50,346 bases of DNA from a virus (taxonomy: Duplodnaviria; Caudoviricetes): IMG/VR virus record IMGVR_UViG_3300032135_000012, positions 1 to 50,346 of that record. One strand, given 5' to 3'. How positions within the stretch are numbered: position 1 is the stretch's first letter; the number at the start of each line of letters is the position of its first letter. The translations under genes and the position numbers were made by a program. Of the stretch, positions 40,370 to 43,468 are shown piece by piece. The notes beneath the pieces are model-generated. The model saw only the letters and a list, made by a program, of their open reading frames with translations. It was not told the origin of the DNA and did not search any database.

Positions 40370-42007
40370 CTAGACCGGCAACCCAGCGCCTTCAAAACTC
40401 ATCCCAGTGTAATCGTAAGGGTCATACATGACACGATCACCAGTCTGTAAGGGCTGCGCCGTTGGCTCAATAAGTTCACGAGCATCAAAGCACGAATACC
40501 ATAGCGCGTCAGCACGGTCAGGGGATGCCTTACCCCGGCGCTTCATCGAATCCTTCGCCTCAACCTTAATCTGCCCCTTATCGGTATGCTCATACAGCAT
40601 CCCACGCAATTCGTCAAGCAACTTATCATCTTGAGAATCAACATCAATAAGGCCACCACGGAAACGAGTCTTCAGGTCAAAGAAGCCCTCAGCGCGAGCA
40701 TTCAGATATTCACGCTTATCCGATGGCGCTGCGCCACCAAAGATTTCCACAACAACATAACGGTCGTCCTTATTCAGTGTGGCAAGACCATCAATGACAC
40801 CACCACCAATACCGGATGCGTCAATCTTGACCACCTTGACACCAAGCTCCAAAGCAATCTTATGGATACGCTCAGCAGAACCAAGATTCTTCGGGTCATC
40901 ACCCGTCAGCGGTGCCTTGCTCCACGATTCAACAAGACGCGCACGCACACCAACCTTCTCCGTTGGCACAGTCGGCACGTTCGTTTCAGGGTCAGTTTCC
41001 CACACCTGACCATACTCAATCTTGTAAACAAACGACTTGTCGCTACCCATGCGGGCAATGTCAACACCTAACTCAGGAATACCATCAGGGTCAGGAAGGA
41101 CAACCGTGTTTACGGCCTTCGCAAGCTCAGTCTCCATGTAGATTGTGTTGCCAGACTCAAACGACCACTGTCCGAGTACGCGAGCAATGTAACGTGGGTC
41201 ATCCTCGCCCCAGTCTTGACGTGCCTGATCAACATAGTCCATACCGGACATGCCGCCAGCCTTGTCAAGATCAAAGCCCTCCTCCTTGGTAATCATTGGG
41301 GAATCCAAAACGCTAATGTGCATCAGATTCCACGTTGACTCACCATCAGACTTATCCCACAACTTAGCCATTGCACAGTTCGGGTCAGTAGGGTTAGCAA
41401 TCAGTAGACGACGGTTAAACTCACCAGTAGAGATGTTACCGAGTGCGTCAATCATGCCACTGGAGAGGCCAGCAGCCTCATCACCAACAGCAAACAGGTA
41501 TGTTGCGTGCTTGCCCTGATAACCGGCATCTTCGCGGCCATCCGGGGGTTTACGACCCTGCCCAATGGTTTCACCGGAGTCAAGCTTCCACAAGTTTGTG
41601 GAAGTGATATAACCCGGCAGTTCGTGGTCAACTATGCCGTCCTTGAAGCGTTGGCGGGATAGTGCGTGAATGGAGCGTAGGTTGTCCCACAGAATCGTGG
41701 TGATCTGATCTTGGAAGGGTGCGGTGGACGCAACGAACGTGTCCTGTGCGTTCCACGGGTGAACGTCAACCCACCATGCCATCGCTATAGACGCAATAAA
41801 CGACTTTCCAACACCGTGGCCTGCGGCTACAGCAGTGTTCCGATTGTCACGAATCGAGTACAGGATTTCTTTCTGCTTAGACCATAACTGTAATCCAAGG
41901 TACTCTTTCACCCACAGCACGGGGTCTTCGCGGTAACGTTTCCGCTTGGTCTGTTGCTGGAGTTGCCCAAGGACTCCGGGCAGGATTTGACTTACCTTGT
42001 CGATCAT
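40370..42007 (-). CDS. terL: Terminase large subunit
   Basis: AGHGVGKS Walker A, VGDEA Walker B, ANP, LGVDIARMGSD and SPDRADA nuclease motifs. Confidence 0.95.
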   Translation of the reverse strand: MIDKVSQILPGVLGQLQQQTKRKRYREDPVLWVKEYLGLQLWSKQKEILYSIRDNRNTAVAAGHGVGKSFIASIAMAWWVDVHPWNAQDTFVASTAPFQDQITTILWDNLRSIHALSRQRFKDGIVDHELPGYITSTNLWKLDSGETIGQGRKPPDGREDAGYQGKHATYLFAVGDEAAGLSSGMIDALGNISTGEFNRRLLIANPTDPNCAMAKLWDKSDGESTWNLMHISVLDSPMITKEEGFDLDKAGGMSGMDYVDQARQDWGEDDPRYIARVLGQWSFESGNTIYMETELAKAVNTVVLPDPDGIPELGVDIARMGSDKSFVYKIEYGQVWETDPETNVPTVPTEKVGVRARLVESWSKAPLTGDDPKNLGSAERIHKIALELGVKVVKIDASGIGGGVIDGLATLNKDDRYVVVEIFGGAAPSDKREYLNARAEGFFDLKTRFRGGLIDVDSQDDKLLDELRGMLYEHTDKGQIKVEAKDSMKRRGKASPDRADALWYSCFDARELIEPTAQPLQTGDRVMYDPYDYTGMSFEGAGLPV

Positions 42008-42507
42008 TCTTCAGTGTGCCCCTCAAGGCGACTCACGACAGCGGGTAGCAACTCTTGGAAGACTCCCTCAATCTCGATCATGTCAATGCTGACACCGCGC
42101 TGTGCGAGCGCTTGCGGCAACAGTTCAAACGCTGCACTGATAGATGATGCCATTGCTTGTGCGTAAGCGTTTGTAAGTTTGGTGGAGATTGCATCCACGT
42201 TGATTTGTGCCTTATCCAGACGTTCCCCCACGTCTTTCAGGAAGCGTCGGTACTCTCCGATCGCTTGCATATCCCCGGCCTCAACAAACTCGTTCAGGAT
42301 TCCCATAACACGGCGTGCATCAAGGATAAGAAGGCGACGTTCCTCCGCTTCGGAGAGCGGGTTGGATGCGTCTAGTAGCTCTTTCAGTCGGAGTAGGGCT
42401 TGCTCTGGGGTAATGACACCTTTGACTGCTCGTGACAGTTCTACGGCTGACCGCTTCTCCGATACTGCTGATTTCAGCAGTTGTTGGTCAAGTTTGGATA
42501 GGTGCAT
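42004..42507 (-). CDS. Terminase small subunit (putative)
   Basis: Helical protein directly upstream of terL; TATACT 6 nt before ATG. Confidence 0.7.
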   Translation of the reverse strand: MHLSKLDQQLLKSAVSEKRSAVELSRAVKGVITPEQALLRLKELLDASNPLSEAEERRLLILDARRVMGILNEFVEAGDMQAIGEYRRFLKDVGERLDKAQINVDAISTKLTNAYAQAMASSISAAFELLPQALAQRGVSIDMIEIEGVFQELLPAVVSRLEGHTEE

Positions 42508-42529
42508 TGCTCAAGTATACAGGTAGGGC

Positions 42530-42970
42530 AACTACTAACTCAGAGTCAACAGTTGCGGATTCCGCAAGGGTTGAGTTGCGGATTATTGAGAGAAGCGGGC
42601 GGTGGTGGGATTTGCTCTGGATACTCACTATTTCCACCGCCAGCGGAACATGGAGAATTACCTACCTAGTTGGGGCGTTTCACTGTTAGCATCCGCGCGA
42701 GTAGCCACGCACCAACCGATAGCAGCGGCCCGAAGGTGTGTGTGAGAATCTTGGCGAAGATCGCTATCCGTGTTTCGGTTCGCGTGTGTCCGGGTCTACT
42801 CTGCGAATGCCGTAAGGATTGGCGACGAAAGCGAATGTGAAGAGTTCCGCGCCCAACCATCCAGCGCGCTCGCCTTCGTTCTTGTGTAGATGTCAACGCC
42901 ACCCTTACGTCCTAACCATGTACACGTAGCCATGATCCGTGCCCACCCAGAAGTCGTGACGACTGGGCAT
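42530..42970 (-). ncRNA. Candidate large structured non-coding RNA (~440 nt)
   Basis: Many long nested helices with minus-strand G-U pairs, cUUCGg loop, two crossing pairings, upstream promoter; no credible ORF. Confidence 0.65.
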
Positions 42971-43107
42971 GTCAAAACAATACCACTAACGGTAGTGTTT
43001 TGACAACAAAACTTGAAAAGTATCTCTAGAGCAATACAAAGCAAGACACTGTTGTTCGCTGTACGGTGAAAAAATGTGTACACATAACGGTAATGTGTAC
43101 ACATTTT
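42970..43107. promoter_or_regulatory. Two palindromic elements sharing a TAACGGTA core; the first overlaps a minus-strand promoter
   Basis: TGTCAAAACA..TGTTTTGACA (42970-43005) contains TTGTCA-18-TATTGT; AAAATGTGTACACAT-7-ATGTGTACACATTTT (43071-43107). Confidence 0.6.
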
Positions 43108-43143
43108 GCCTAGAAGCGTAGCCAGATAACTTTACCTGTAGAC

Positions 43144-43188
43144 AAAGAAAACCAGCCCGTACCGCTAGCGGCAGAGGGACTGGTGTTT
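43144..43188 (-). terminator. Intrinsic terminator
   Basis: ACCAGTCC...GGGCTGGT followed by TTTCTTT on the minus strand. Confidence 0.7.
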
Positions 43189-43207
43189 ATGCTCTAAGCA
43201 TAGCAGA

Positions 43208-43468
43208 TTACTCGACCTTGTTAGCCTCATACTCATCCCACATACGCTTCTCGCACGCCTTTTCGTAGAACTTTATGGCTTCAGCGATATATCCTGCCGC
43301 GTCATTCAGTAGTTCACTTTCATCAAACGGGCCACTTTCAGCGTTCAGTGAAAGCGTGAAAGTGCCAACCTGATCCGAACCGCACACGCCGTAGTCTGGG
43401 TGCCCATCAAACGAAGAGTGACCATCACCCTTGCCGCACAGCATCCCAATCTCAATAGACTTACTCAC
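43208..43468 (-). CDS. Hypothetical protein
   Basis: GAGGAG SD; GTGA overlap. Confidence 0.7.
   Translation of the reverse strand: MSKSIEIGMLCGKGDGHSSFDGHPDYGVCGSDQVGTFTLSLNAESGPFDESELLNDAAGYIAEAIKFYEKACEKRMWDEYEANKVE

Follow-up and report, generated by a model that had tools for sequence, protein, structure and literature searches.

The window analysed here (the whole stretch of 50,346 bp, IMG/VR record IMGVR_UViG_3300032135_000012) is a complete phage genome, with a 127-bp terminal overlap of the kind typical of a circular assembly. Its minus strand carries the genes at 20.3-45 kb, and within these lies a gap of 700 nucleotides (nt) at 42508-43207, bounded by an open reading frame (ORF) of 86 amino acids (aa) and by a 167-aa gene at the position expected of terS. 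The subject of this work is a 99-nt RNA module on the minus strand of this gap, at 42811-42909. A preliminary description had proposed a single pseudoknotted RNA of about 440 nt here (42530-42970), in a gap lacking any credible ORF. The absence of a credible ORF is borne out, with a PHROG search giving no matches for the ORFs inside the gap. The RNA is also structured, pseudoknotted, encoded on the minus strand and without a match in Rfam, as had been proposed, but it measures 99 nt rather than about 440, and its pseudoknot is local rather than long-range. Judged by comparison of sequences, it is almost certain that 42811-42909 is one copy of an uncatalogued family of phage RNA modules, each about 95-105 nt long.

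Anatomy of the module

The module consists of a helix P1, a 5' internal loop, a helix P2, a P3 hairpin and a variable 3' linker, all on the minus strand. The 5' strand of P1 (42897-42909) pairs with 42811-42824, so that 13 nt pair with 14 nt; its 3' end carries the GGCG of a GGCG/CGCC core (42897-42900 with 42821-42824), and the extension of P1 toward 42909 is lineage-specific. The 5' internal loop, J1/2, has 17 nt (42880-42896), and is followed by the 5' strand of P2 (42870-42879), which forms 10 bp with 42825-42834, the G at 42869 adding a lineage-specific G-U pair. The 3' strands of P2 and P1 (42811-42834) follow each other with no unpaired base between them. The P3 hairpin (42848-42868) begins one base past P2, and has a GC-rich stem of 5 bp (42864-42868 with 42848-42852) and an 11-nt loop (42853-42863) that ends in GGUUGG; all of its letters in the window are those of the family consensus. 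The linker J3/2 (42835-42847) is 13 nt long in the window, and varies in sequence and in length (about 11-20 nt) across the family.

The GACAUC of the internal loop (42889-42894) forms the 5' strand of a pseudoknot of six pairs, for which bases 42855-42861 of the P3 loop provide the 3' strand. This pairing of six P3-loop bases with the internal loop obliges P3 to lie folded back alongside P2, in a compact pseudoknot. The pseudoknot predicted in this way is local: it joins the apical P3 loop to the 5' internal loop, with no partner far downstream.

Covariance model R1 scores the window copy at 88.3 bits (E ~1e-23, span 42807-42905). All of the family features that were tested are found in it, namely the P1 core, a P2 continuous with P1 on the 3' strand, the P3 stem and loop, the pseudoknot and the model score. 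The window holds no second copy of the module when the search filters are turned off, the next-best scores being 12.2 and 10.9 bits.

The first two helices of the preliminary description are P1 and P2. It had given them as 42897-42909 with 42811-42824, and a contiguous helix of 11 bp with two G-U pairs, 42869-42879 with 42825-42835; both are exact in the sequence and covary across homologues. P3 was missed, and its bases were assigned to long-range pairs.

The family and its comparative evidence

The first lead was a BLAST search against 50,697 phage records, which gave a single match, of 53 nt at 87% identity, between window positions 42848-42900 and the Microbacterium phage Cece. The matching stretch of Cece is intergenic and unannotated, and occurs twice since it sits in the terminal repeat. 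When the two sequences are set side by side, helix P2 has paired differences. Hairpin patterns written in the International Union of Pure and Applied Chemistry (IUPAC) code then found true copies in all six matches from viral contigs, in two of six from genome contigs (Microbacterium sp. p3-SID336 and a Leifsonia sp. Root227 prophage) and in 15 of 19 from metagenome contigs, several of these last being duplicates. Patterns with the hairpin stem unconstrained gained the loci L041/L043 and L042, and two looser scans, with only internal-loop bases and GGTTGG fixed, gave 83 new loci; three of them (L078, L088 and L132) passed the covariance model. The model and BLAST together added copies in isolated phages: a divergent second copy in Cece, and copies in Pumpernickel, Zooman and A3Wally, with two further records listed only.

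In total the family has 28 distinct sequences scoring 39.6-97.8 bits, including those of two close relatives of the window phage, L150 and L151, which are described below; chance pattern matches score no higher than 29.4 bits. The members come from isolated Microbacterium phages, the Leifsonia prophage, viral contigs and metagenome contigs, and a genome has one or two distinct copies (two in Cece). A homologue in host chromosomes was also considered and rejected: under strict filters, with 27 candidates scored per genome, the module was found in one of 151 Microbacteriaceae genomes, on the starting genome's own 50-kb tRNA-rich contig, and was not found in the others searched. Within what was searched, the family is confined to phage and prophage DNA.

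The window and the locus L013 have an identical run of 61 nt, with unrelated flanks, while L150, a true relative of the window phage, resembles the window module less than L013 does. These two observations together suggest a cassette-like transfer, in which the module would move as a unit between unrelated gene contexts.

At the gathering score, Rfam 15 has no match to the module in the window or in 16 other loci; three members searched at E values up to 10 likewise have none. No description of it was found in the literature searched, which did not extend to the supplementary tables of Fremin and colleagues (2023; PMC10690425). That paper reports 10,006 unnamed candidate structured RNAs from IMG/VR viruses, listed in those tables. 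The part of it consulted describes candidates that resemble the module in being covariation-supported intergenic RNA structures of uncultivated IMG/VR phages, some of them tRNA-like or upstream of genes, and the module may already be among them, without a name or function.

Two MAFFT alignments, of 17 and 19 sequences, were made without any model, and the structure was written onto them by hand. In these, 96.3% and 94.9% of the cells are paired, compared with 31-48% in a control that shifts the 3' partners by 1-3 columns. Compensatory changes are found in 13 of 24 pairs (17 sequences) and 16 of 26 pairs (19 sequences), values reached by none of 500 shuffles, and RNAalifold recovered P1, P2 and P3 independently.

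In the larger alignment of 25 sequences, 96.3% of cells are paired as against 33-46% with the partners slid, and 23 of the 28 pairs have compensatory changes. By helix, P1 is 89.7% paired (compensatory in 5 of 7 pairs), P2 97.6% (10 of 10) and P3 100% (5 of 5 once the divergent members are included), and the pseudoknot is 98.6% paired with three of its six pairs covarying. The nested helices of this alignment are fitted by the model; the pseudoknot is absent from the model and is hence unfitted. Its motif in the 5' internal loop is GAC-N-N-C, and it occurs as CAUC/GAUG, CAGC/GCUG (7 sequences), CCUC/GAGG and CGUC/GAUG, with CGUC or CGGC having a G-U pair; the outer pair varies among G-U, G-C and U-A. 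A13 and C14 are invariant in the 25 sequences, and the pairs of G12 and C17 vary in three and one of them, respectively; A19, G25 and A26 are invariant in the 19-sequence alignment. In L150, found later, A13 is replaced by G.

The wobble pairs in the family alignment comprise 63 G-U cells and 6 A-C cells. The excess of G-U means that the structure belongs to the minus strand of the window, as the wobbles had already been taken to indicate, and in every locus the structured strand is the sense strand of the flanking genes.

Several points weigh against this picture of the family. The nested part of the 25-sequence alignment is model-fitted, as noted above, and the first pattern scans fixed the letters of P3 and its loop, so that part of their invariance stems from the way in which the members were discovered. 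Only three members were gained from the two looser scans; the family is therefore either small, or has diverged beyond the reach of the patterns. Taking all of this together, there is very little doubt that the module is genuine, a conserved and pseudoknotted RNA outside Rfam.

The gap upstream of terS and the extent of the RNA

A search with the protein encoded at the terS position found three relatives, L150 (94% identical), L151 (86%) and the truncated L152. L150 and L151 align to the window over the whole upstream region, and both retain a terminator-like hairpin, a promoter-like TTGYCA-18-TATTGT, the module, and an identical block of 23 nt before the start codon. Their modules score 90.2 bits (L150) and 86.7 bits (L151). 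The changes in the L150 module preserve pairs (A13 to G, which still pairs with U50, and G35/C80 to A/U), as do two in L151 (U51 to C, giving G12-C51, and C55 to U); the P2 of L151 carries two mismatches.

Both relatives lack a segment of 248 nt, 42553-42800 on the minus strand, which lies outside the module and is found in this phage only. It is flanked by direct repeats of 11 nt, alike at 9 of 11 positions (42802-42812 and 42554-42564), which leaves its boundaries free to shift by one repeat length; either it was inserted, with a duplication of the target, or the relatives lost it by deletion between the repeats. The spacer between module and terS is unlike in all three phages, at about 300, 80 and 65 nt. 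Comparison of the gap with 149 loci (1.05 Mb), these relatives not included, gave 40 BLAST matches, all of which fall within 42819-42908.

The segment missing from the relatives contains most of what had been described as the remainder of a large RNA. A second arm had been drawn there, including a cUUCGg loop, but the piece that covers it (42690-42806) folds no better than shuffled sequence (z -0.66), and arm and loop are both missing from L150 and L151. A further stem, 42598-42605 with 42634-42641, is weak (z -2.0 for 42590-42650, matched by 4 of 200 shuffles) and is lost from the relatives with the same segment. Two long-range pairings had been proposed to form a pseudoknot, 42851-42858 with 42668-42676 and 42844-42850 with 42643-42649. 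The letters are indeed complementary, but as a pseudoknot these pairings do not hold: both far partners lie in the segment that the relatives lack, and the pairings require bases of the conserved P3. Folding of the whole 441-nt candidate is likewise unexceptional (minus strand z -1.01, plus strand z -0.93; equalled by 18 of 100 shuffles). The sole piece that stands out is 42807-42912 (106 nt), with z -3.36 and one of 200 shuffles as good; 42910-42975 has z -0.09, and the two terS-proximal pieces have z of about -2.

A single RNA of about 440 nt, similar to GOLLD or ROOL, held together by long-range pseudoknots and linked to packaging, is thus hardly credible. It would be consistent with the complementarities in the letters, with the lack of a credible ORF and with the promoter-like site upstream, but it is contradicted because the nearest relatives lose 42553-42800 yet retain the module. 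GOLLD, ROOL and all other Rfam models give no hit at gathering score in the window; at E values up to 10, Rfam finds only microRNA noise on the upstream hairpins over 42530-42970, with GOLLD and ROOL absent there too, and the conserved part is only 99 nt. As to packaging, the module resembles the phi29 packaging RNA (pRNA) in being a phage RNA of similar size with covarying loop-loop pairs (intra- and intermolecular pairing of the module's loop being indistinguishable from the sequences), and in the window lineage it lies upstream of terS. There is no Rfam hit to pRNA, though, and a scan of 19 other loci found no terminase among the 121 neighbouring proteins encoded up to 3.5 kb from the module. 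Outside its own lineage the module lies among replication and recombination genes and transfer RNA (tRNA) arrays and not beside terminase genes, and the suggested link to packaging is not supported. The annotation is corrected to a 99-nt module and a lineage-specific segment of 248 nt, in place of an RNA of 440 nt; the other roughly 340 nt of the candidate fall outside the module.

Upstream of the module, the promoter-like TTGTCA-18-TATTGT came from a consensus scan (42977-43006, minus strand). It lies within a hairpin at 42968-43010, and its predicted start is about 65 nt upstream of the module. This putative promoter was part of the preliminary description; it is retained as TTGYCA-18-TATTGT at the same place in L150 and L151, and the scan finds one site of this type where 1.1 are expected by chance. 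In L150, a paired change (T to C and A to G) maintains the stem of the hairpin that the site overlaps. The hairpin has the loop word TACCGTTA in common with another at 43066-43111, which contains the 10-bp palindrome TGTGTACACA twice. Palindrome and loop word were considered as genome-wide repeats and rejected, both occurring only in the gap. Further upstream, past the end of the preceding operon, is the terminator-like hairpin, followed by a T run (43145-43190, minus strand), which L150 and L151 keep with a differing stem. The 86-aa ORF (43208-43468) lies between an exonuclease gene and the gap and has no match in PHROG or Pfam; L150 does not have this ORF, about 310 nt here being swapped for 76 nt.

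On the other side, the 23-nt block (42511-42533, minus strand) is the same in the three relatives, the coding regions of which are 78-89% alike. It contains TATACT (42514-42519), 6 nt ahead of the terS ATG, which has no clear ribosome-binding site, and TATACT could be a leaderless-type promoter of the late operon. The 167-aa gene (42004-42507, minus strand) is named terS by position only, its sole match being phrog_6388, of no assigned function (E 8.8e-5); its stop overlaps the start of terL (40370-42007), which matches phrog_2 (E 7.9e-27). The nearest terminase large subunits are those of a Pseudanabaena phage (50%) and a Stenotrophomonas phage (41%), followed by Arthrobacter and Microbacterium phages (about 36%). 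The late (terS) operon of the window phage is 22 kb long.

ARAGORN finds no tRNA or transfer-messenger RNA (tmRNA) gene in the window, and Rfam no tRNA or tmRNA on the module in any locus scanned, in keeping with the earlier failure to recognise a tmRNA. A Pfam scan of 75 window ORFs found no reverse transcriptase, Ro or RtcB domain. Near-complete copies of the window sequence are present in 20 DNA sequencing runs from brine, aquatic and permafrost metagenomes, in 15 studies; the same search returned no RNA runs. Contigs from four of the runs, compared over 42300-43300, are identical to the window wherever they overlap it, and hence provide no variants.

Gene context and possible functions

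The proteins that flank the module are unrelated between lineages. The neighbours named by PHROG mostly belong to replication and recombination, and include RusA, RecE-like and Erf proteins, exonucleases, primase and HNH endonucleases; in L034 and L042 the module has the Erf and exonuclease genes on one side and the primase gene on the other. PHROG 284, which adjoins the module in the window, is within 3.5 kb of it in three other loci (L022, L014 and L020); this is a gene order common to relatives, with no fixed pairing. In L010 (2840-3392) the module lies between tandem paralogous small genes (41% identity), each preceded by the same ribosome-binding region of 24 nt.

Genes for tRNA occur within 1 kb of 8 of the 27 copies examined. 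One Microbacterium genome carries, on its contig C34, an array of 15 tRNAs in which tRNA-Leu and tRNA-Met are 105 nt apart, and the 98-nt match takes up this spacer. The module of L088 lies between tRNA-Thr and tRNA-Leu in an array of 19, about 9 nt ahead of tRNA-Leu; in L042 a tRNA begins 35 nt downstream of it, and in L011 it is 705 nt upstream of an array of 28. Four jumbo Microbacterium phages have it in a region rich in tRNAs, and in three of these an annotated gene for an RtcB-like ligase is nearby. In L014 (655-815) the module is surrounded by what looks like a tRNA frame, with a pairing of 6 bp resembling an acceptor stem, a tiny hairpin where a D arm would be, and a 5-bp stem with a 7-nt loop resembling a T loop, so that, read by eye, the module appears in place of the anticodon arm. 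ARAGORN calls no tRNA in this frame.

The best explanation that we can offer for the whole, held tentatively, is that of an uncatalogued family of modules that would be released from its transcripts and would bind protein. The module would be transcribed within polycistronic early or leader transcripts, from which a small stable RNA would then be released, the cutting in tRNA-array slots being done by tRNA-processing enzymes. A conserved protein would be bound by the near-invariant surface of the pseudoknot, the RNA acting as decoy for, or modulator of, a host or phage factor. In the window lineage, the module lies in an untranslated region, with the conserved promoter-like site on one side and the late operon on the other. 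A discrete, matured RNA is favoured by the fit to tRNA-array slots and by the tRNA-like frame, and a conserved macromolecular target by the restriction to phages together with the strong conservation of sequence. The mechanism taken by itself, in which the module is cut out of polycistronic transcripts and binds a protein, is quite possible but doubtful.

Two known systems offer partial parallels. The tRNA cluster of phage T4 contains stable RNAs that are not tRNAs, roughly of tRNA size or above, which occupy slots in the tRNA array and would be released by tRNA processing. The module is like them in these respects; homology is not claimed, and the module is also present in phages without tRNAs, such as that of the window. 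The second parallel is YrlA, a Y RNA-like RNA of bacteria, with its protein Ro/Rsr: Cece-type phages bearing the module have genes for a Ro-like protein and for an RtcB-like ligase close to tRNAs, and the tRNA-like frame of L014 is reminiscent of YrlA. There is no Rfam hit to YrlA on the module, though, and the TROVE domain is absent from the window and from two further genomes (G001 and G003). It should be added that Cece has a weak YrlA-like match at a distance of 5 kb from the module (L064 3758-3819, equal to Cece 107757-107818; 24.8 bits, against a gathering score of 69), in an unannotated gap of 500 nt directly upstream of the gene for the Ro-like protein. This may be a phage Y RNA, or may merely reflect a likeness to tRNA, as a similar weak match elsewhere overlapped a true tRNA.

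A number of observations count against release and protein binding. No candidate for the partner protein recurs with the module: TROVE/Ro is found in two of five module-bearing genomes tested and the neighbouring exonuclease in one of five, and both were set aside as partners, the weak YrlA-like match being moreover located away from the module. Adjacency to tRNA genes is confined to the minority of copies given above, in five lineages when the four jumbo phages are counted once; the energy-minimum fold of L014 recovers the T-arm-like hairpin and an extended P1 but not the acceptor stem; and most copies lack a promoter or terminator of their own. Finally, a crude ORF call places the stop of an upstream same-strand ORF 3-9 nt ahead of the module in 10 loci and, in nine, a start codon 18-35 nt beyond it; such spacings would equally suit a cis-acting messenger RNA element. 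A short likeness of the P3 loop to the GTPase-associated centre of 23S ribosomal RNA (rRNA) prompted the idea that the module mimics that centre, which was rejected. Comparison of 19 members with a Microbacterium rRNA locus gave only matches of 7-13 nt among the BLAST matches listed, the best E value among these being 0.007, and variants of the P3 loop do not follow the host.

Among the alternatives, the module could belong to a new class of small self-cleaving ribozyme, which would cleave the polycistronic transcripts of the phage next to tRNAs or at the junctions between genes. Ribozymes that process adjacent tRNAs exist in phages, and some copies of the module do adjoin tRNA genes. The compact pseudoknotted core, near-invariant unpaired bases, linker of variable length, and scattered gene contexts with one or two distinct copies per genome are all compatible with this. 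The module is similar in size to the twister, pistol, hatchet and hepatitis delta virus (HDV)-like ribozymes, and shares with them a pseudoknot between loop and internal loop, conserved junction bases and dispersed phage contexts. It has no hit to their Rfam models, nor does any Rfam ribozyme family match it or lie nearby in 15 loci scanned, and we know of no small ribozyme with its order of helices, a P2 of 10 bp and a long one-sided linker. A cleavage site cannot be inferred, self-cleavage of the module being hypothetical, and the invariant loops would equally suit the binding of a protein or ligand. We therefore regard a ribozyme as unlikely.

A second alternative is a cis-acting processive antiterminator resembling HK022 put or the Bacillus EAR, in which RNA polymerase, once bound by the module as it emerges, would be carried past terminators and across untranslated regions, for instance in the late operon or in tRNA arrays. 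Like the module, put and EAR are RNAs of about 70-120 nt internal to phage transcripts or operons, sense-oriented and indifferent to the identity of the gene downstream. The module is found in sense orientation only, inside transcripts, and several of its contexts would suit this role: in the window lineage a conserved promoter-like site is followed by the module and then by the late operon; in Cece the terminal-repeat copy has a strong terminator hairpin 64 nt downstream (-28.2 kcal/mol) with a U-rich tail after it; in L027 a GC-rich hairpin directly follows the module; and in L011 the tRNA array lies downstream. Against this, put RNA requires a tether to its transcript, and in two tRNA arrays a tRNA starts about 1-9 nt after the module, where processing would sever such a tether; many mid-operon copies, moreover, have no terminator nearby. 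The module has no sequence likeness to any Rfam family, of which EAR is one, while put may not be catalogued there; nor does it match put or EAR by sequence or model, and put consists of two stem-loops without a pseudoknot of the module's type. An antiterminator is accordingly improbable.

Thirdly, the module could be an intercistronic element for RNA processing or stability, serving as a nuclease entry site or as a structured 5' cap that guards the downstream message. The tight spacing between co-directional genes would fit such a role, as would P1 and P2, which together make about 15-24 bp, continuous on the 3' strand. A nuclease site or protective hairpin requires neither a covarying pseudoknot nor a near-invariant loop, however, and the copies in tRNA arrays have no message to protect, which makes this alternative distinctly improbable.

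An element acting as DNA, such as an origin, a single-strand initiation site for primase or an inverted repeat bound by protein, is very improbable. The module is frequent in the replication and recombination region, as in L034 and L042, but the strand asymmetry of the wobbles rules out a symmetric duplex site, and the compensatory changes in the pseudoknot and the precise fit to spacers of tRNA arrays indicate RNA. A gene-specific leader or riboswitch is excluded, because the downstream genes are unrelated and some copies are followed by tRNAs. A small protein-coding gene can be dismissed almost entirely: one sense frame runs through the core without a stop in 20 of 25 members, and a 102-aa ORF of the window (42796-43104) spans the module, but that frame is open through the conservation of bases, and coding is excluded by the stops in five of 25 members (13 and 22 of 25 in the other frames), by steps in linker length that are not multiples of three and by paired changes 40-50 nt apart that have no coding explanation, while copies between tRNAs have no space for a start site and there is no PHROG match.

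Unannotated stretches between genes abound in phage genomes, and a role is known for very few of the conserved RNAs of phages. For the module the comparative support is strong, with compensatory changes in most pairs including the pseudoknot, and near-invariant unpaired bases. It might represent a new functional class of RNA with the complexity of a ribozyme or an aptamer, which would be self-cleaving or would disarm a conserved host enzyme, passing as a 90-nt cassette among unrelated actinobacterial phages and maturing by means of the tRNA machinery; we think this rather unlikely. If it is true, the enzyme disarmed could be RNA polymerase, a ribonuclease or a defence nuclease. Since the module is present, unannotated, in Microbacterium phages that are harmless and can be cultivated, these proposals can be tested directly, and its placement in tRNA arrays provides a concrete hypothesis for how phages might mature an RNA that is not a tRNA.

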